Shown piece by piece: positions 1,185 to 45,744 of a DNA stretch of 45,744 nt (position 1 is the first letter of the stretch; every line of letters begins with the position of its first letter). The notes below the pieces were generated by a model, which saw only the letters and a list, made by a program, of their open reading frames with translations, was not told the DNA's origin and searched no databases. The position numbers and the translations under genes were made by a program. The stretch is from a virus: the IMG/VR virus record IMGVR_UViG_3300017716_002598, positions 1-45,744 of that record. The stretch is one strand, 5' to 3'.

Positions 1185-2366
1185 ATGGCCCGAGCCATCA
1201 ATCGGCTGACCGCCAGGACGGTCGCGGCCATGACCCGGCCGGGCCGTCATGCGGACGGCGGCGGGCTCTATCTCATAGTCGACAAGGTGCCGGCCAACGC
1301 GGACGACAAGACCGCTCCGGCAAAGCGATGGGCGCTCCTCGTATCCGTCCGGGGAAAGCGGCGCGAGATCGGCCTGGGGGGCGTGACCTCGACCAACGGG
1401 CTGGCGGAGGCCCGAAAGAACGCCGCCGAGGCCGTCCGCGCGATTGAGCGGGGCGACGACCCGACCCGGCCCAAGGTGGCCGCCCCCGCCTTCCGTATTG
1501 CGGCCGAGCAGGTGATCAAGGACCTGGCCCCCGGCTGGCGCGGCGCGAAGACCGAGGACGGCTGGCGGCGGAACCTCCTAACCCATGCGGCGGATATCGG
1601 ATCCGTGCCGGTCGATCTGATCACGACCGACGACGTGCTTTCCGTTGTTCGCCCCCTTTGGACCGAGAAGCCGGAGAGCGGCGGGAAGCTGCGCGCCCGG
1701 ATCGAGGTTGTCCTCGACGCCGCCAAGGCGCGGGGCTGGCGGGAAGGGGAGAACCCGGCGCGGTGGCGGGGGCATCTCGACCGACTCCTCCCCAAGCCGA
1801 GGAAGCTGGTCCGGGGCCATCACAAGGCGCTGCCCTACGCCAAACTCCCCGCGTTCATGGCGGCCCTTGCCGAACAGACGGCCAGTTCCGCCCGGGCGCT
1901 CGAGTGGACGATCCTGACCGCCTCCCGAGAGGATATGACCCTCAACGCCCGCTGGGGGGAGGTCGAGGGCGATATCTGGACGATCCCCGGCTCTCGCATG
2001 AAGATGGCCCAAGACCTGCGCGTCCCCCTGCCGGCGGCGGCCCTGGCGGTGTTGGCCGCGGTCAAGATCGGCGAGCCCCGGCCGGAGGCGCTGATATTCC
2101 CCGGCAAGAAGAAGGACCGGCCAATGTCGAACGCGACGATGGACGCCCTTCTCGACCGCATGGGCGTCCCCGTCACGGTCCACGGCTTCCGCTCAACATT
2201 CCGCGACTGGGCCGGGGATATGACCGAACACCCGCGCGAGGTCGCCGAGGCGGCCCTGGCCCACGCCGTAGGGAACGCGGTCGAGCGATCCTATCGCCGG
2301 GGGGATGCGCTGGAGAAGCGCCGGGCGCTCATGGCGGACTGGGCCGCCTATTGCCGCCCCGCATAA
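1185..2366 (+). CDS. int: Tyrosine integrase (P4-like family)
   Basis: The C-terminal catalytic region HGFRSTFRDWAGD...LAHAVGNAVERSYRRGD carries the H-x-x-R and Y signatures. The N-terminus (GGGLYLIV) is typical of this family. ATG 1185 is preferred over the longer track ORF start at 1122. Confidence 0.9.
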   Translation: MARAINRLTARTVAAMTRPGRHADGGGLYLIVDKVPANADDKTAPAKRWALLVSVRGKRREIGLGGVTSTNGLAEARKNAAEAVRAIERGDDPTRPKVAAPAFRIAAEQVIKDLAPGWRGAKTEDGWRRNLLTHAADIGSVPVDLITTDDVLSVVRPLWTEKPESGGKLRARIEVVLDAAKARGWREGENPARWRGHLDRLLPKPRKLVRGHHKALPYAKLPAFMAALAEQTASSARALEWTILTASREDMTLNARWGEVEGDIWTIPGSRMKMAQDLRVPLPAAALAVLAAVKIGEPRPEALIFPGKKKDRPMSNATMDALLDRMGVPVTVHGFRSTFRDWAGDMTEHPREVAEAALAHAVGNAVERSYRRGDALEKRRALMADWAAYCRPA

Positions 2367-2392
2367 ATACGCGCCGAGTGCGTAAATAGGCG

Positions 2393-2420
2393 TTGACATT
2401 ACACTAGCGGAGCGTAATAT
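2393..2420 (+). promoter_or_regulatory. Near-consensus sigma70-type promoter of cassette A
   Basis: The promoter reads TTGACA (2393-2398), 16 nt, TAATAT (2415-2420), in an A+T-rich island. A TGCGTAAATA box (2379-2388) lies 4 nt upstream of the -35. The first ATG (2485) is 64 nt downstream of the -10. Confidence 0.7.
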
Positions 2421-2484
2421 CCCCTTATTGAAACGGGGCATCCGCCCCCACCCAGCCGGGGGGAACCGGCAAAGGGGGTCTCCC

Positions 2485-2670
2485 ATGACCTACTTCTCCG
2501 CCACCGACCACGCGATCCGCGCGGCCAGCGCGTCTCAGACCTTGCGTCTGGTCGAACGTCCCTCGCGGTTCGGCGGGGCGTTCGTCGCCATCGAAGACGG
2601 CTTCGGCCTAATCGAGGTGGCCGACGATATGCCGGCGGCCCAGGCTCGTGTCGCACAGTGTGCGGCATGA
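2485..2670 (+). CDS. Hypothetical small protein A1 (61 aa)
   Basis: ATG 2485 is preceded by the purine-rich AAAGGGGG. The stop overlaps the next ATG (ATGA). No similarity recognised. Confidence 0.6.
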   Translation: MTYFSATDHAIRAASASQTLRLVERPSRFGGAFVAIEDGFGLIEVADDMPAAQARVAQCAA

Positions 2671-2903
2671 GCGGGCTAGAGGAGCGAAACGGTCGGAAAT
2701 TCGCCTCTCCCAAACACCAGGCCCTTTACGACCTATTTCGCCGCGATCCGCCGACCGCCGGCTTCGGCGGGGGCAACGCCGCGGCCTATCGCTTCGGCTT
2801 CGCCAACCCCGAGAAGCCCGCGAAACACGTTCGCGGGTCGACCGCATACGCCGCCTGGGCCGCTGGCGTGGATACTGCCCGCGCCCTGGCCCCTAACCCT
2901 TAA
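2667..2903 (+). CDS. Hypothetical small protein A2 (78 aa)
   Basis: ATGA-coupled to A1. Codon bias is coding-like. No similarity recognised. Confidence 0.6.
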   Translation: MSGLEERNGRKFASPKHQALYDLFRRDPPTAGFGGGNAAAYRFGFANPEKPAKHVRGSTAYAAWAAGVDTARALAPNP

Positions 2904-2916
2904 GGAACCCGAGCCG

Positions 2917-3075
2917 ATGACCCGCCCTGACCTTGTTTGGCATCACCGCGCCCTTGTGGCGGAGGTCGCCGCCCATAACCTCGCCGTCATTGTCCGCCGC
3001 CGTCGCGGTGGAGATTGGAGCGCGCCGGAGAACCAGTATCGCAACGCCCTGGCCGAGATCGAGGCGCTGGCATGA
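2917..3075 (+). CDS. Hypothetical small protein A3 (52 aa; below the ORF-track cutoff)
   Basis: Translated by hand: MTRPDLVWHHRALVAEVAAHNLAVIVRRRRGGDWSAPENQYRNALAEIEALA. AAGGA lies about 10 nt upstream. The stop overlaps ATG 3072 (ATGA). Confidence 0.5.
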   Translation: MTRPDLVWHHRALVAEVAAHNLAVIVRRRRGGDWSAPENQYRNALAEIEALA

Positions 3076-3305
3076 TCCAGATGACCGAGACCAGCACCGG
3101 CCCGGCGTTCTCAACCGAGGCCCGCGGCGTGACCTATTATCTCCGCACCGACCGGCTGGGCCGTTACGAGTTGAGCAGCCAACGCATCTCCCTTCGCGCC
3201 TCGCGGACGGGCGGCACCGTTCGTCACTTCGCTTCGCTGGATCAGGTCGAGGCCGAGGTCAAAGCCTTTGCCGGCCTTAGCGCCCTGATTGGAAACCCCG
3301 CATGA
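3072..3305 (+). CDS. Hypothetical small protein A4 (77 aa)
   Basis: ATG 3072 is ATGA-coupled on both sides. No similarity recognised. Confidence 0.6.
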   Translation: MIQMTETSTGPAFSTEARGVTYYLRTDRLGRYELSSQRISLRASRTGGTVRHFASLDQVEAEVKAFAGLSALIGNPA

Positions 3306-3541
3306 CCCCCGCCGAGATCACCGCCGCCCGGGCCGCCCTTGGCGCGCAATGGGGCTTCCCCCGGCCGCTCCTCAAAAGCGAACTGGGCCGGGCCTTGGGC
3401 TTCGACGGGCGCGACCCTGGCCGGCAGATCGCCGAGCTCGAGGCGGGAACGTCGGCCTTGACCGGATCGACCGCCCAGCTTCTCCGGGTCTATCTCGCCG
3501 GGGCCCAGCCCCCGGGCGGGGTTGAGACGATCAAACGCTGA
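3302..3541 (+). CDS. XRE-type helix-turn-helix protein A5 (79 aa), last gene of cassette A
   Basis: MTPAEITAARAALG...SELGRALG...IAELEAGTSALTGSTAQLLRVYL matches the usual short phage XRE/antitoxin-like HTH pattern. It shares the MTPAE..AA..LG N-terminus with ORF 32652..32870. Confidence 0.6.
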   Translation: MTPAEITAARAALGAQWGFPRPLLKSELGRALGFDGRDPGRQIAELEAGTSALTGSTAQLLRVYLAGAQPPGGVETIKR

Positions 3542-3551
3542 GACGACAAAA

Positions 3552-3583
3552 GGCCCCGCCGCCCCCGAAGGAGCAGCGGGGCC
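3552..3583. terminator. Convergent-operon terminator hairpin
   Basis: GGCCCCGC (3552-3559) pairs with GCGGGGCC (3576-3583). On the minus strand the hairpin is followed by TTTTG, an intrinsic terminator for the late operon. It also lies 11 nt after the stop of cassette A. Confidence 0.7.
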
Positions 3584-3638
3584 ACAAGTCCCTTGCAGGG
3601 AACGGGGTTGCCTATCCCGGGACGCTGAACTCGGCGGG

Positions 3639-3806
3639 TTAGGAGGGGGAGGCGAGAAGCAGCCTCATGCTCTCCGCCACCGCTTCGGCCCGGTCGTGGC
3701 TCATCGGCACGAAGCCCTCAAGCTCGGGATCATGGCCTTGATATTGCCCCATCCCGGTCATGGCAAAGCTACCGGGTGCGATCTCGACAACCTCGATCTG
3801 ATGCAT
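3639..3806 (-). CDS. Hypothetical small protein (55 aa; below the ORF-track cutoff), last late gene
   Basis: Translated by hand: MHQIEVVEIAPGSFAMTGMGQYQGHDPELEGFVPMSHDRAEAVAESMRLLLASPS. GAGGGG lies 6 nt upstream of the ATG. The gene sits directly after the stop of the Kelch-like gene. Confidence 0.5.
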   Translation of the reverse strand: MHQIEVVEIAPGSFAMTGMGQYQGHDPELEGFVPMSHDRAEAVAESMRLLLASPS

Positions 3807-3815
3807 TGTGACCCC

Positions 3816-5243
3816 TCACACGACCATGCAGCGCATGACGATAGTCGACGTGTTCAGGATATACTGAATGAACCGGACCCCGGTTTCGGGCTCCACCACG
3901 TCAAAAGCTGTGTCGCCGAGGATTGCCGCACCGGACGGATAGACGTTGACAGACCAGCCCACCATCGACTGCTCTGCGAAGTCGTATCGGAACCAGCGGC
4001 CCGTCGCCTCCTTGGCGATGTAGAGATAGCCGTCCGCATAGACCCATTTCGTCCCGGTCGTGAAGGTCTCGGCCGCCGGAGCATAGGTGACGCCCGAGAC
4101 CCAAGTGTTTGCGGCGATGTCGTAATAGTCCAGCACCGCCCCAGCCCCACCCCGGAAGGAATAGATGCGGCGGCCGTTGATGATGCTGTTCTCATCGGAC
4201 CAGCGGGAATCCCGGGCCGAAGGGACGTTATAGACCCAGCTTCCACTGGCCCCGAGCCCAGGTGCAGCCGCGCGGGCCGCTGTAGGGGAGAGGGTCGTCC
4301 ATGTGTTTCCGCTAATCGAGTAGCGATACAGCGTGACCGCATTATTCCCCATCAGATATAGGAAGTCGTCGTTGCCCTCGATGTGATACTGGCTGGTCGC
4401 GTCGGGGGTCGTCGTCCATGCCGCCGAGACGGTCAGGGCCGTGCCGGTGTTGCTGGCAATGGTGCGGATTTGGCCCGCGCCGGTGCCGGCGACGATCTTG
4501 ACCTGAGAGTTGGCCCACTGGTTCGCGGCCCAGGCCTTCGCAGAGTTGCTGAGCGTGGTCGATGTTCCGCCGGTCGCCGTGCCAGTCGCGAAATTGATGT
4601 CAACGCCGTTGTCGGCGTAGCTCGGCGTGGCCACCATCCGGCCATCGGTGCCCCAAGAAGCGGGCAGGCCGGTGATGGTCAGCGTGGTCCAGGCGTTCGT
4701 GGCGAAGTCATAGACCCGGAAGGATCCGGCTGCGAGCGTGCCCGCCCCCAGCACATAGTAGCGCGGGGTGATCAGTCGATAGGTCGAGGAGGCCGTGATC
4801 GCCGCCGAGAACGGGACCGTGGGCGTCACGACGCCGTTCGCGCCGACCGTATTGAAGGCAATGGTCCGAACGTCGCCCGCGCCGGGTCCGCCCGTGATCT
4901 CGACCTGATACCCGGCCAGCGAACGCGCCAAGGTCAGGTTGGTGTTCAGCGCCGTCGTGCTGCCGCCGGTCGCCGTGCCGCTTGGCCCGATGGCAGCGCC
5001 GGTTCCGCAGGCCCCGGCCCCGAACGTGCCCGCCAGAGCCGCGGACGGGATCTGGATATAGCCGTCCTCAGCCGGATAGTAGAGATACTGCACCGTGTTG
5101 CTGACGACATACAGTTGCCGCTGCTGCGAAAGGCGCGAGGAGATCACAAACGTCCCCGCAGCCGTGGCGGCCGGCGCGGGCGAGGTCATCACCGTCCAGC
5201 GTTTTTGATCGAGGATTTTGCGGTTGAAATTGGCAACGGGCAT
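3816..5243 (-). CDS. Kelch-like beta-propeller fibre / receptor-binding candidate with a duplicated N-terminal module
   Basis: Kelch-type strands recur: FRVYDFATNAWTTL, LYRYSISGNTWTTL, VLDYYDIAANTWVSG, WFRYDFAEQS. Two roughly 70-aa repeats share GTATGG..T.L...V.I..G.GAG..RTIA.NT......(S/T).Y. Confidence 0.6.
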   Translation of the reverse strand: MPVANFNRKILDQKRWTVMTSPAPAATAAGTFVISSRLSQQRQLYVVSNTVQYLYYPAEDGYIQIPSAALAGTFGAGACGTGAAIGPSGTATGGSTTALNTNLTLARSLAGYQVEITGGPGAGDVRTIAFNTVGANGVVTPTVPFSAAITASSTYRLITPRYYVLGAGTLAAGSFRVYDFATNAWTTLTITGLPASWGTDGRMVATPSYADNGVDINFATGTATGGTSTTLSNSAKAWAANQWANSQVKIVAGTGAGQIRTIASNTGTALTVSAAWTTTPDATSQYHIEGNDDFLYLMGNNAVTLYRYSISGNTWTTLSPTAARAAAPGLGASGSWVYNVPSARDSRWSDENSIINGRRIYSFRGGAGAVLDYYDIAANTWVSGVTYAPAAETFTTGTKWVYADGYLYIAKEATGRWFRYDFAEQSMVGWSVNVYPSGAAILGDTAFDVVEPETGVRFIQYILNTSTIVMRCMVV

Positions 5244-5559: not shown

Positions 5560-6303
5560 TCAGGTCCCGTCGTTGACGATCAGATTGATGATGGCCCCGC
5601 CCGCGTCCGTAACCCACCAGTGCCAGGGGCCGGGCTGCGTCGGCCTGATTTGCTGCACATAGACCCCGGTGGGGCCGGCTGGCCCTGTCGCGCCGGTCTC
5701 GCCCTGCGCGCCTGTCGGGCCTTGAGCGCCGGCGGGGCCGGTGGCTCCTTGCGGCCCTGTCGCTCCGGTAGGCCCTGCGGCTCCGGTGTTTCCTTGGGGG
5801 CCAGCGGGGCCTTGCGGGCCGGCGGCGCCCTGGGGGCCGGTTGCGCCGACATCGCCTTGGGGGCCTTGGGGGCCGGTGCCGCCGGTGCCGCCGGTGGCGC
5901 CTTGGATGCCTTGCGGTCCCGTGTCTCCGGTGTCGCCTTTAGGTCCGGTCGGGCCTGTCCCTCCGGTCGCCCCCGTTGGCCCGGTGCTGCCCTGAGGCCC
6001 GGTCGGTCCTGTAGGGCCAGCCGGTCCGGTGTCGCCCTGCGGGCCGGTGGCCCCTTGCGGGCCGGTTGCGCCCGCCGCGCCGGCTGGGCCTGCCGGGCCT
6101 TGGGGGCCGGTCGCACCCGTCGCTCCCGCCGCCCCTTGTGGTCCTTGGCTGCCCTGCGGCCCTTGCGGTCCTTGCCCCCCCGGAGCGCCGCTGACCACGT
6201 TGAGCTCGAAGGTCGGAGCGCTGGCGACTTCCAGTTCAGCCGAGGCCGCGGGGATTTCGAGACTGGTCGTCCCGCCGTCGACAATCGAAAGGTCCGGGAT
6301 CAC
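5560..6303 (-). CDS. Collagen-like (Gly-X-Y repeat) fibre protein
   Basis: An uninterrupted run of G-X-Y triplets ([28 protein letters not shown]...) covers most of the 247 aa. A globular C-terminus follows. Confidence 0.85.
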
Positions 6304-6611
6304 AGGCCGAACTCGATCTTGACCGGCCGGGTCGACTGACGGACCCCGCCCGAGAGGTAGGAGACGGTCAGCGCATAGGCCCCTTTCGTCATCTCCTCGG
6401 TCGTCTGGTATTGCGCCGTGAAGCTGCCCGGGCTGGCGGTCTGGTTCGCCAGCGTCACCGTCATCGGGATCTTGGTGTTCGTTGCCGGCTCCCGCAGCCA
6501 GGCCTCAACCGTGATGCCGGCCGTCGTCAGATTGACCAGAGCGCCGTTCGCGTCGCGATAGGCCCCGGTGATCGACAGAGTGTCACCGAGGGTCAGATAG
6601 GGGGTGGACAT
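6300..6611 (-). CDS. Hypothetical beta-sandwich-like protein (103 aa)
   Basis: ATGA-coupled to the collagen-like gene. Its composition and length resemble ORF 11816..12214. Confidence 0.6.
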
Positions 6612-32651: not shown

Positions 32652-32870
32652 TCAATCCGTAGGGGGTCGGGGCGCACAGGACGCTAGTTCTTGCGCCCAC
32701 GCCGCCGGGGACAGCTTGAGGGCCATTAGGACCGCCCTCGCCGCAGGACCGGACGGCCCGACTGTGGCATAGTTCTGTGCGGTCTTCGGGCTGACCATGA
32801 GCCACCGGCCCGCAGCCTGCTGCGACAGGCCGAGGGGTGCGAGGGCGGCGCGGTATTCAGCGGGGGTCAT
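32652..32870 (-). CDS. XRE-type helix-turn-helix protein B4 (72 aa), last gene of cassette B
   Basis: MTPAEYRAALAPLGLSQQAAGRWLMVSPKTAQNYATVGPSGPAARAVLMAL fits the short XRE HTH pattern. ATG 32870 is ATGA-coupled to the upstream ORF. Confidence 0.6.
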   Translation of the reverse strand: MTPAEYRAALAPLGLSQQAAGRWLMVSPKTAQNYATVGPSGPAARAVLMALKLSPAAWAQELASCAPRPPTD

Positions 32871-33046
32871 TCGGGCAACTCCGAACAAAACACGATTTCC
32901 GCACCGGGCGCATAAATCGCGACAAGATCGCGGGCGGTTTCCTTCATGTCGGACCAGCACTCTCCGTCCACATCAAACTGACGACCATCCTCTAGGGTCA
33001 GCAGCGCCCATTTTGCCGTTTGCCGCTCAAGGTGAACCTCACGCAT
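32867..33046 (-). CDS. Hypothetical small protein B3 (59 aa)
   Basis: ATG 33046 is preferred over 33097, which would give a long overlap. No similarity recognised. Confidence 0.5.
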   Translation of the reverse strand: MREVHLERQTAKWALLTLEDGRQFDVDGECWSDMKETARDLVAIYAPGAEIVFCSELPE

Positions 33047-33275
33047 GAACGTTGCGTCCCGTTTCAACAAAATGCCGAGCGTTGAGCGCCGAAGCATATT
33101 CCTTGCGAAGCTGCGCCAGACGACGCTCCTTGCGGGATTCTTTGTCGTCCGACGCCTTCACGGCTTCCGCTTGCTGCACGATACCGGCCATAACAGCGGT
33201 CCAATCGGTCTTGGCAAGCGCGCGGCGCTGGACCTTTCCCTTAGCAGCGTCCGAAAGGTCAATGTATCGGGCCAT
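33039..33275 (-). CDS. Hypothetical small protein B2 (78 aa)
   Basis: The protein is charged and helical. It is preceded by AGGAAACAGACAG directly before the ATG. No similarity recognised. Confidence 0.6.
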   Translation of the reverse strand: MARYIDLSDAAKGKVQRRALAKTDWTAVMAGIVQQAEAVKASDDKESRKERRLAQLRKEYASALNARHFVETGRNVHA

Positions 33276-33324
33276 CTGTCTGTTTCCTGAAGGATGGAGA
33301 GGCGGGGCCGAAGCCCCTGCCGGG

Positions 33325-33585
33325 TTAGTCAGCCATCGCGCGTTGGTAAGCGTAGGCTTGCGAACCCTCTAGGTCGCGAACGATGCGGGCGAGACCGGGC
33401 ATCGTCGGACCGTCAGAACCGCAAAAGTATGTTTTACCGGCGACAGACCGGAGCATCAAATGAATGTCGGGCGAGGTCGGCGGCCCGGCCCAGTTTGTGC
33501 AATGAATGAGAACGCCGACGCAGGAGCCGTCTTGCATCAGGGCCGATTCTTCGGCGTTCAGGGGGATGGCGTTATAGCTGGTCAT
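33325..33585 (-). CDS. Hypothetical small protein B1 (86 aa)
   Basis: Preceded by the same GGAAACAGACAG 12-mer before the ATG. No similarity recognised. Confidence 0.6.
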   Translation of the reverse strand: MTSYNAIPLNAEESALMQDGSCVGVLIHCTNWAGPPTSPDIHLMLRSVAGKTYFCGSDGPTMPGLARIVRDLEGSQAYAYQRAMAD

Positions 33586-33646
33586 CTGTCTGTTTCCGTC
33601 CGGCTAGTGCTTGATTGCCCTGCGCCGATGAAGTGACCCTAAGCAC

Positions 33647-33689
33647 ATTTTACGCAGGTCGCAATAGGCGGTTGCGTATTATTTACGCA
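33647..33689 (-). promoter_or_regulatory. Candidate promoter of cassette B, with the same box geometry as cassette A
   Basis: Minus strand: TGCGTAAATA (33689..33680), 4 nt, GCAACC, 17 nt, TAAAAT (33652..33647). The inverted repeat TACGCA-N16-TGCGTA lies at 33651-33678. The ATG is 61 nt downstream. Confidence 0.5.
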
Positions 33690-41212: not shown

Positions 41213-41293
41213 GCCCGGCACGTTACGAACGGTTACGCGATAACGCAAGACCTTGTTACGCCCAGATACATCCTTTCCGGTAACGTGATCGGC
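41213..41293. promoter_or_regulatory. Immunity switch region: divergent promoters and GTTAC/GTAAC operator repeats
   Basis: GTTAC occurs at 41222, 41232 and 41255, and GTAAC at 41280. Minus-strand promoter: TTGCGT (41248..41243), 17 nt, TAACGT (41225..41220). GGTAACGTG (41279-41287) lies 6 nt before the repressor ATG. Confidence 0.7.
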
Positions 41294-41677
41294 ATGGATG
41301 ATCGCTGGAAAACCGCCGCCGACTCTCACGACCGCCTGCGTTGGGCCCGGATCCAATGGCAGGAGGCCAAGGGCATCAAGCCGGACGCCGGGGCCGCGGC
41401 GGAGAGCCTGGGCATCAAGGCGCACACCTATCGTGCCTATGAGCGCCGCCCCGACTCCTCAAAGCACACCCGTCTTGACGATCAGCGCGCGATCCAGTTC
41501 GCGCGCAAATTCGGCGTCAACTGGACCTGGCTGCTGACGGGCGAGGGAAGCCCCGACGCGAGCGACGACCGCCTGACGCCAACAGAGCGCCGGATGATCG
41601 ACGCCCTACGAGAGGCCCCAGAGGCCCGGCAGGCCGCAGCCGCCGATGCGATCATCCAGCTGCTCAAGATTGCCTAA
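41294..41677 (+). CDS. CI-like XRE-family repressor (127 aa, no peptidase domain)
   Basis: The HTH region is AAESLGIKAHTYRAYERRPDSSKHTRLDDQRAIQFARKFGVNWTWLLTGEG. The gene is divergent from the cro-like gene. Confidence 0.75.
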   Translation: MDDRWKTAADSHDRLRWARIQWQEAKGIKPDAGAAAESLGIKAHTYRAYERRPDSSKHTRLDDQRAIQFARKFGVNWTWLLTGEGSPDASDDRLTPTERRMIDALREAPEARQAAAADAIIQLLKIA

Positions 41678-42136: not shown

Positions 42137-42145
42137 GCTTGGCGC

Positions 42146-42195
42146 GTAACCCAACGTAACTTTCCGCTTGCGTTGTGAGTAACGATAGGTAACGT
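42146..42195 (+). promoter_or_regulatory. PL-like early promoter with four phased GTAAC operator repeats
   Basis: GTAAC occurs at 42146 and 42156, and at 42179 and 42189, with 10-bp spacing within each pair. The promoter reads TTGCGT (42168-42173), 16 nt, TAACGT (42190-42195). A GAGGGGA Shine-Dalgarno sequence precedes ATG 42221. Confidence 0.65.
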
Positions 42196-42220
42196 GGCCC
42201 CCTAACCAGAGGGGAGCCCC

Positions 42221-45607: not shown

Positions 45608-45744
45608 GGACCATCGCCCAGATCGACGCCGAGCTTGCCCGGCTGAAAGCGGAGCGGAAGGCCCTCAAGCCTGTCGTGTCGCTCTCGCCGGGGTTCAAGC
45701 GGTCACGCTCGTTCCGCCCGGAAGGGGAGGGCCAGCGCCAGCCG
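45604..45744 (+). CDS. 5-prime part of the HNH/DUF968-like nuclease ORF (continues at position 1)
   Basis: ATG 45604 overlaps the recT stop (ATGA). The reading frame runs into the terminal repeat and matches ORF 50..406. Confidence 0.7.
   Translation, partial: MRTIAQIDAELARLKAERKALKPVVSLSPGFKRSRSFRPEGEGQRQP
45627..45744. repeat. Terminal direct repeat copy 2
   Basis: Identical to 1-118. Confidence 0.95.

Follow-up and report, generated by a model that had tools for sequence, protein, structure and literature searches.

Two cassettes with a shared promoter box

The window analyzed here is the whole of the IMG/VR virus record IMGVR_UViG_3300017716_002598 (positions 1 to 45,744; 45,744 nucleotides [nt]), and it carries two accessory cassettes whose promoters share the 10-mer TGCGTAAATA, at 2379-2388 on the plus strand and at 33689-33680 on the minus strand. 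Both cassettes have one design, in which the cassette's own promoter is followed by a few unrelated small open reading frames and then by a small gene for an XRE-type helix-turn-helix (HTH) protein, A5 or B4. Cassette A (2485-3541, plus strand) is located between the integrase gene (1122-2366) and convergent tail-fibre genes. Its payload (2485-3305, plus strand) consists of A1 (2485-2670), A2 (2658-2903), A3 (2917-3075), and A4 (3072-3305), whose functions are unassigned, and its last gene, A5 (3302-3541, plus strand), encodes a protein of 79 amino acids (aa) that is a candidate autoregulator. Cassette B (33585-32652, minus strand) is located inside a long leftward transcription unit. Its payload (32867-33585, minus strand) consists of B1 (33585-33325), B2 (33275-33039), and B3 (33097-32867), also unassigned in function, and its last gene, B4 (32652-32870, minus strand), encodes a 72-aa protein that is a candidate regulator of the B-type module. 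Judged from the sequence comparisons described below, the 10-mer is most likely part of binding sites for small DNA-binding regulators, one encoded at the end of each cassette.

The two copies of the 10-mer are identical, as an earlier note on this DNA had reported, and they are the only matches in the window even when one mismatch is allowed. Each copy is followed by one of the only two GCGTAAWAT sequences in the window, GCGTAATAT at 2412-2420 in promoter A and GCGTAAAAT at 33655-33647 in promoter B, after a gap of 23 and 24 nt, respectively. The distance between the two GCGTAA copies (32 base pairs [bp] in A and 33 bp in B) and that from the -10 hexamers proposed in the note to the first ATG (64 nt and 61 nt) were also as given there. 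The gap in the search pattern that it proposed (N27) was wrong, and a collection scan with N25-30 yielded only chance matches in AT-rich phages. In scans of public collections with N20-27 and N22-25, near-identical relatives of promoter B (L170, L171, and L318; loci and contigs are given as L numbers throughout) were the only sequences with the exact blueprint. The other matches that were inspected came from unrelated phages of low GC content and, where this was looked at, fell within apparent coding sequence. Outside these near-identical relatives, homologous B-type cassettes do not conserve the exact 10-mer with its spacing. A separate observation was made in L169, an unrelated viral contig of 34% GC, which contains at about 4400-4470 a tandem TGCGTAA(A) array with at least three copies of TGCGTAAA, one of TGCGTAAG, and an overlapping GTGCGTAAA. 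This array is iteron-like and probably unrelated to the cassette boxes.

Taken by itself, the shared 10-mer would be a coincidence of only moderate improbability. In shuffles of the two upstream regions, the probability of a common word of 10 or more letters was 0.019, and at least two matches with no more than one mismatch to the 10-mer were found in 4 of 100 shuffles of the window. The dyad pattern TRCGYA-N5-TRCGYA is stronger evidence. With up to one mismatch, it has three matches in the window, all of them in these two promoters, and the mean in shuffled sequences was 0.84. In addition, 10 of the 19 GCGTAA copies in the window fall in the 8% that is intergenic, where 1.6 would be expected. 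By its sequence, the shared 10-mer is best described as one arm (TGCGTA) of a 17-bp dyad together with its A/T-rich flank. The proposal that the upstream box is a free-standing activator site was not borne out.

Dyads at promoter A and in related cassettes

The core of promoter A (2393-2420, plus strand) consists of the -35 hexamer TTGACA (2393-2398), a 16-nt spacer, and the -10 hexamer TAATAT (2415-2420). It matches 10 of 12 consensus positions and was the sole sigma-70-like site in a consensus scan of 2200-3900. The distal dyad (2368-2384, plus strand; TACGCG-CCGAG-TGCGTA) has arms complementary at five of six positions, and the 10-mer at 2379-2388 is its right arm plus AATA. The proximal dyad (2400-2416, plus strand; TACACT-AGCGG-AGCGTA) is also complementary at five of six positions; its right arm is fused to the -10 hexamer and holds the second GCGTAA. 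Cassette A's 5' untranslated region (UTR) contains a hairpin read from the sequence (2435-2448, plus strand; GGGGC-ATCC-GCCCC), and a similar GGGGC-AGC-GCCCC is found in the leaders of L232, L233, L241, and L242.

Cassette A is carried by seven metagenome contigs, five of which have an identical promoter. L156/L159 and L231 retain the box, GGCG, TTGACA, and TTACAC, and the next 16 nt (TAGCGGAGCGTAATAT, window 2399-2414) are replaced by GCCGGTCCCGTATTCT or GCCAGACCCGTATTCT. The replaced patch yields another valid -10 hexamer, TATTCT, at the same 16-nt spacing, and the -35 and -10 hexamers originally assigned to promoter A are thereby supported. The patch, TAGCGGAGCGTAATAT in the window and GCCGGTCCCGTATTCT in L156, has been swapped between otherwise identical promoters, and the window version has the 9-mer AGCGGAGCG in common with a late promoter at about 32650-32642. 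We also considered an integrase arm site as the identity of the box. This was rejected, since the integrase gene in L156/L231 is inverted and 390-680 nt away and the box is still 4 nt upstream of the -35 hexamer.

Dyads of the 6-5-6 form with arms complementary at five or more of six positions were present in 11 of 13 distinct A5-type promoters, against a background of 0.0046 per position. The outer bases of all these dyads are TAC...GTA, and the dyads occur at only two registers, either with the right arm fused to the -10 hexamer (...CGTA|TGTT) or just upstream of the -35 hexamer. At the proximal register, the inner bases change in step in L229, L232, L233, L234, L237, L239, L243, and L244. 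The inner triplets vary yet stay complementary, with five kinds of pair observed (GGG/CCC, AGG/CCT, GAC/GTC, AAG/CTT, and GCA/TGC), as in TACGGG/CCCGTA of L233, TACAGG/CCTGTA of L232, TACGAC/GTCGTA of L239, TACAAG/CTTGTA of L243, and TACGCA/TGCGTA of L231. The distal dyad is perfect in L231 (TACGCA-GCGAG-TGCGTA), is present in L156/L159, and has the equivalent TTCGGA-N5-TCCGTA in L233/L234. Counted by eye, the right arms are again spaced 32-33 bp apart in L156, L233, and L241, and L243 has a spacing of 37 bp. Because these sites are upstream of the transcription start, their symmetry points to a dimeric DNA-binding protein and not to an RNA structure.

Promoter B and the B-type module

The distal dyad of promoter B (33673-33689, minus strand; TGCGTA-AATAA-TACGCA), of which the 10-mer is positions 33689-33680, is the only perfect TRCGYA-N5-TRCGYA in the window and is identical in L010/L047/L095/L096/L318. 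The proximal block (33640-33656, minus strand; TGCGTA-AAATG-TGCTTA) has one mismatch to the same pattern. It is located 33 bp downstream of the distal site, inside the core promoter, and contains GCG-TAAAAT, whose hexamer (33652-33647) had been proposed as the -10. No sigma-70-like site at promoter B passes the consensus scan.

The promoter and leader of cassette B belong to a B-type module that was found in about 55 distinct versions (...TATTGCGTAACATCTGCCCATGTGGGACAAGGGT TCATCGGCGCAGGGCAATCAAGCACTAGCCGGAACGGAAACAGACAGATG), with unrelated small genes and then a B4 homologue downstream. The conserved order in this family is TTGCGn, a gap of 16-17 nt, a -10-like hexamer (GATAAC, GACAAG, CATAAC, TATGTT, TACGTT, or TATCCA), a gap of 3-4 nt, and the leader. 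By-eye alignment of the approximately 55 variants identified TTGCGA (33659-33664, minus strand; TTGCTA in L318) as the counterpart of the family's -35-like TTGCGn. An alternative candidate -10, TAGGGT (33636-33641, minus strand; TAGGAT in L318), follows TTGCGA after 17 nt and occupies the place of TATGTT/GATAAC/GACAAG in the class I modules L098, L109, L140, L105, and L107. Promoter B thus has two candidates, GCAACC-17-TAAAAT and TTGCGA-17-TAGGGT, both of them weak. On the family reading, TAAAAT falls in the spacer, within the conserved block CGTAAnAnnTGC that holds the second GCGTAA of promoter B, and GCAACC (33675-33670), which the earlier note took for the -35, overlaps the right arm of the distal dyad. 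The assignment of GCAACC and TAAAAT as promoter elements is accordingly doubtful, and so is the idea of one blueprint for both promoters, as it is TTGCGn that the B-type family conserves.

Two module classes differ in the placement of the block CGTAAnAnnTGC: in one it directly precedes the -10-like hexamer, and in the other it lies an additional 7 nt upstream and overlaps TTGCGT. It therefore behaves as a separate unit. Between the proximal block and the distal boxes of relatives (TGCGTAAAAA, TACGCAAAAA, and CACGCAAAAA) there are 14-33 nt. Three different payloads (in the window, in L047/L010, and in L318) accompany the window's form of the promoter. Both boxes are unchanged in L318, where the upstream hairpin and the -35-like and -10-like elements have all changed. 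Taken together, the boxes of related cassettes are conserved or change in step, and their dyad arms are held at fixed registers. By these comparisons, the boxes behave like protein-binding sites, as had been proposed, and not like products of chance.

A scan with the leader sequence only detected 50 contigs, of which 46 were already known to carry B4, two more (L246 and L257) carry a divergent B4, and two (L259 and L279) are outside the B4 tally. The recognition helix of B4, usually KTAQNY, is KTSHLY in L246 and KTAQRY in L257 and L147. Exactly these three loci have TTGCGTCGTTCT, TTGCGTCAGAAT, or TTGCGTCAGTCT where the others have TTGCGTAAnAT, and they carry TTGCGTCAG or TTGCGTCGT instead of TTGCGTAA. 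The paired changes fit the suggestion that B4 reads the GTAA part of the block. L257 also encodes, at 6097-6378, a second and more divergent B4-type HTH protein (MTPEQYIKALHTLGL...), and the gene that closely follows is methyltransferase-like and has a DPPW motif. One phage can carry several B4-type regulators. In L105, L109, L110, L111, L115, L118, L130, L133, and L146, a second B-type module is present directly downstream of B4, after a T run. In these second modules, the leader is a variant, CGGGGCGCGGCAATCAAGCAGCACCCGG, and the block reads TTGCGCACATT or TTGCGTACATT; B4 is thus located between two modules.

A conserved hairpin in the B-type leader

The leader of cassette B (TCATCGGCGCAGGGCAATCAAGCACTAGCCGGACGGAAACAGACAGATG; 33586-33631, minus strand) contains a hairpin at 33627-33601. 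Its 28-base core (33600-33627) occurs once in the window, with no second copy of the B-type leader there, and is near-invariant in the approximately 55 modules. In the hairpin, 95% of cells are paired and three pairs show compensatory changes; none of 500 shuffles reached the observed value, and slid controls gave 17-45%. The loop is a conserved 12 nt, GGCAAUCAAGCA. Searches of Rfam yielded no family matching either promoter or the leader region. By analogy with the RNA motifs of Aca1 and Aca2, the hairpin is a candidate protein-binding RNA motif. The A-type leaders of L229/L231/L232 match the B-type leader at both ends (TCATC...ACGGAGACAGACAGATGACC).

The terminal HTH proteins A5 and B4

A5 matched phrog_14076, annotated as a transcriptional regulator (E value, 1e-4). 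It has 17 homologues, each the last gene of a short cassette, and is the sole gene conserved across these 17 homologous cassettes, the other genes being unrelated from locus to locus. The hosts of the A5 homologues include a Caulobacter sp. metagenome-assembled genome, other Alphaproteobacteria, and Xanthobacter agilis. For B4, 61 relatives were found in IMG/VR, 223 in the protein database, and none among species-representative genomes; the HTH core is near-invariant among its homologues.

AlphaFold2 models of A5 and B4 were confident (mean predicted local distance difference test values of 94.6 and 92.0, respectively), with four to five helices each. In Foldseek searches, the top match of both was C.Kpn2I (4yba; probability of 0.98-0.99 and template modeling score of about 0.56-0.6), followed by HigA2, Aca2, Aca10, and P22 c2 for A5 and by HigA2, Aca1, Aca2, and Aca10 for B4. 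Profile-profile comparison of A5 and B4 with hhalign aligned 52 columns in the same order from residue 1 (E value, 3.6e-4; probability, 37%), and BLASTP gave no alignment between the two. From the profile-profile and fold comparisons, A5 and B4 are probably distant homologues. The term HTH paralogues used in the earlier note is acceptable in the sense of distant homology between two XRE-type HTH proteins; a relationship close enough for a BLASTP alignment was not found.

Exchange of payload genes

In searches of Pfam, PHROGs, and NCBIfam, which are general libraries and not Acr specific, and which covered 9 proteins of the window and 10 payload proteins of relatives, no match was found for any payload protein. 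A by-eye guess that the 210-aa payload protein of L231 is a cytosine methyltransferase was unsupported by Pfam. No homologues of B1 to B3 were found in the fetched loci, and in L047/L010 and L318 the same promoter is followed by genes other than the B payload. The payloads of the A5-type cassettes are likewise mutually unrelated. Homologues of A1 (61 aa), 87-92% identical, are the first genes of the B-type cassettes of L139, L142, L144, L106, L113, and L123, in phages of lower GC content, and a homologue of A3 is found inside the B-type cassette of L138. The A1 payload gene thus moves between the cassette types, and promoter, leader, and payload pieces recombine between A and B.

Comparison with known systems

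Restriction-modification controller (C) proteins are regulators of about 80 aa, each of which binds a pair of dyad operators at its own promoter; one of the pair activates and the other represses. The C proteins C.Kpn2I, C.Csp231I, and C.AhdI resemble the present system in this two-operator logic, and C.Kpn2I is the best structural match of A5 and B4. In contrast to C-protein systems, neither cassette contains restriction or modification genes or domains, and the regulator gene is the last in the operon, whereas the C-protein gene is the first. In the cassettes, 32-33 bp separate the operator centers and the -35 lies in between, whereas those of the C proteins are adjacent in a 35-bp C-box. 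Operons of the HigBA toxin-antitoxin type are similar in having a small XRE-type HTH protein, an antitoxin that autoregulates through palindromes over the core promoter, and HigA2 is a top structural neighbor. A type II toxin-antitoxin operon was nevertheless rejected, since zero to six unrelated genes precede the HTH gene and no conserved toxin partner is present. The cassettes also resemble phage morons, in that the insertion of cassette B is absent from relatives and has a lower GC content, each cassette has its own promoter, and a terminator hairpin ends cassette A. The definition of a moron, however, includes no conserved terminal regulator, no operators that change in step with it, and no conserved leader, whereas in these cassettes the payload is exchanged within a constant frame made up of the promoter-leader and the HTH gene.

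The acr-aca operons share with the cassettes an own promoter, one to several small, fast-changing, unrelated genes, and a conserved small HTH gene at the 3' end. A5 and B4 both have this terminal position, and the gene order is the same in all related loci. In every Aca family, an inverted repeat lies inside the core promoter, often accompanied by another close to it, and transcription from this promoter is repressed by the Aca protein (PMC9410906). Cassette A and its A5-type relatives have such a core-promoter repeat plus a distal one. In cassette B, it is only partly present: the distal dyad is perfect, and the proximal block, in contrast to the acr-aca pattern, is not a clean palindrome. 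Further points of likeness are the possible control of more than one operon and the structured 5'-UTR motif, as some Aca proteins control more than one operon or neighboring operons and Aca1 and Aca2 bind RNA motifs in the 5' UTR (PMC13551039). Aca1, Aca2, and Aca10 are among the structural neighbors of the A5 and B4 models; profile searches with the A5 and B4 alignments against PDB sequences yielded no match to these three proteins at an E value of 1 or less, and the similarity is at the fold level. The cassettes differ from acr-aca operons also in that no payload protein resembles a known Acr or other family in Pfam, PHROGs, or NCBIfam.

Two self-regulated cassettes or one regulon

We lean, with slightly better than even confidence, toward reading the two loci as accessory cassettes of an acr-aca-like kind that regulate themselves and whose operator half-sites are related. 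In each cassette, the HTH protein encoded last would bind the dyad sites as a dimer and repress its own promoter, so that the cassette would fire on infection and then be shut down, as in acr-aca operons. The distal site may add cooperativity, or early activation as with the controller proteins of restriction-modification systems. The two promoters would be alike by descent, A5 and B4 being distant homologues with related half-sites built on a CGTA core. Two parallel self-regulating circuits are the simplest form of this model; cross-regulation would be possible and is not required.

Several observations weigh against this model. The Foldseek matches of the modeled A5 and B4 structures have E values of 0.2-0.4, and the homology of the two proteins is weak by the hhalign probability and the missing BLASTP alignment. 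Related loci were found through A5 or B4, and the presence of the gene in each locus hence follows from selection; the leader-sequence scan described above is the single search that is independent of these genes. The link between the recognition helix and the block comes from three loci, two of which are possibly one lineage. The proximal site of promoter B is not a true palindrome, and the arms of its distal dyad stand in the opposite order to those of the A-type dyads; hence, a single mode of binding cannot account for both. Promoter A scores less than 8 bits with a weight matrix derived from the B-type blocks of other phages. Finally, the payload proteins match no known anti-defense or other family, and an acr-like function of the cassettes is suggested by analogy.

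The alternative put forward in the earlier note is that one common regulator (B4, A5, CI/Cro, or a host factor) reads TGCGTAAATA and GCGTAAWAT and coregulates both cassettes as a small regulon. The identity of the 10-mer, the second GCGTAA at 32/33 bp in both promoters, and the confinement of all three TRCGYA-N5-TRCGYA sites of the window to these promoters agree with it. The 16-nt patch in promoter A, moreover, creates GCGTAATATC, a string that L099 and L145 have as their B-type block, and the L156/L159/L231 variant has CCCGTATTCT at this place. Aca proteins, too, have been predicted or shown to control further operons (PMC13551039). However, the B-type matrix separates the two promoters: it ranks 33658 (minus strand) first in the window with 21.3 bits, followed by both strands of the distal dyad of promoter B, and promoter A stays below the 8 bits given above. 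The A-type geometry, with TAC..GTA outside, is reversed in the distal dyad of promoter B (TGCGTA...TACGCA), the A-type dyads change in step with the diverging A5 family, and the B-type block tracks the recognition helix of B4. A single common regulator is thus not indicated, and we regard this explanation as unlikely. CI and Cro were weighed as candidates for such a regulator, since GCGTAA is enriched in the immunity region as well and CGTAA is common to its repeats and the cassette boxes. The region contains CGTAAC/GTTACG direct repeats with a period of 10-11 bp at 41213-41293 and 42137-42220, such as CGTAAC-CGTT-CGTAAC at 41222-41237 (minus strand) and CGTAAC-CCAA-CGTAAC at 42145-42160 (plus strand), which flank the divergent Cro-like (41212-40988) and CI-like (41294-41677) genes and are probably the immunity operators. 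These are direct repeats and not dyads, and no TRCGYA-N5-TRCGYA dyad is present in the immunity region of the window. In those relatives for which 10-kb flanks were examined, the B-type promoter was the sole operator-like place at which GCGTAA clusters. CI and Cro are therefore unlikely binders, and CI/Cro operators were rejected as the identity of the box.

Two further explanations dispense with a dedicated regulator. The boxes could be core-promoter features, with the A/T-rich box acting as a UP-like element and CG-TA as a host-specific -10 extension or as part of a TTGCGT -35. CG stands directly before the -10 TA in nearly all A5-type promoters (CGTATGTT, CGTATTCT, CGTATATT, and CGTAATAT); in B-type promoters, TTGCGT is at a -35 distance from the -10-like hexamer and persists where TAAnAT is lost (L147, L149, and L105), and the boxes are at about -40 to -60 with A/T runs after them. 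A left arm TACnnn that changes so as to stay complementary, however, has no role in sigma-70 recognition, the position of CGTAAnAnnTGC with respect to the -10-like hexamer differs by 7 nt from one module class to the other, and the distal boxes stand at variable distances of 14-33 nt, which makes this explanation quite improbable. The least probable, to which we give very little credence, is a chance similarity between two A/T-rich stretches or a neutral recombination scar of mosaic promoter modules. The shuffle probability of 0.019 belongs to a comparison made after the fact, the promoter, leader, and payload pieces are clearly mosaic, and the exact blueprint is restricted to near-identical relatives, the other inspected matches being in unrelated low-GC phages. 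On the other hand, the box is fixed while its flanks diverge and the adjacent 16-nt patch is replaced in L156/L231, both boxes are unchanged in L318 among altered hairpin, -35-like, and -10-like elements, and dyad partners are present at both promoters.

If the model of two self-regulated cassettes holds, the constant frame of promoter, leader, and terminal HTH gene would be an anchor for guilt-by-association gene discovery and would point, in phages that infect alphaproteobacteria and uncultured bacteria of fresh water, to new anti-defense or other accessory genes. No matching Aca-type family for that phage group was found in the libraries searched (Pfam, PHROGs, NCBIfam, and PDB sequences), and more than 200 B4 homologues already mark such loci. 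The cassettes would also offer a small natural test case of linked change between regulator and operator, in the dyad arms that change in step and in the recognition helix that changes with the promoter block, and the B-type leader hairpin would be a candidate RNA target of an HTH protein. Set in this cassette context, the shared box as first noted is an ordinary regulatory feature. A more speculative extension, which we consider doubtful, is that the A5-like and B4-like proteins are two undescribed Aca-type families framing widespread and rapidly changing anti-defense cassettes in phages of Caulobacter-like and freshwater bacteria, that B4 binds the 5'-UTR hairpin to control translation like Aca2, and that the TGCGTAA half-site lets one regulator cross-control both cassettes.

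Genome setting and neighboring elements

The ends of the window carry a 118-bp direct repeat (1-118 and 45627-45744); the window is therefore a complete phage genome, circularly assembled and about 45.6 kb long, and not a prophage with host flanks. The phage is temperate and probably has an alphaproteobacterial host, and no close relative was found among GenBank phages. Cassette A is closed by a GC-rich hairpin with a 14-bp stem (3552-3583, minus strand), detected in the terminator scan before the convergent tail-fibre genes, which is likely a terminator.

Upstream of cassette B are replication genes, DnaB (37187-35694) and the gene for a 263-aa protein (34541-33750), and downstream is a late promoter-terminator element (32656-32560) before the ParB-like, terminase, and structural genes. 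The stretch of about 33748-32657 is missing in contigs whose 263-aa protein is 90-96% identical, and the stop codon of that gene abuts the late element there. Cassette B is thus an insertion, because the stretch is absent from relatives that are this similar in the adjoining protein, and its GC content is below that of the rest of the genome. A GC-rich hairpin (33718-33690, minus strand; GCGGACA...TGTCCGC) is located directly upstream of the 10-mer of promoter B. Its counterpart in L318 (2419-2439; GGGACAG...CTGTCCC) differs in sequence and keeps the stem, and the hairpin may insulate cassette B from the replication genes in the manner of a terminator. The late element after B4 (minus strand) consists of TTGACA-N17-GCAGAA and a leader (...ATACGCGCAAGACGCGACC...), followed by the hairpin GGCCCCAGCC/GGCCGGGGCC and a T run, and it is kept in relatives that do not have cassette B. 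It looks like a constitutive late promoter with a terminator that would need antitermination.

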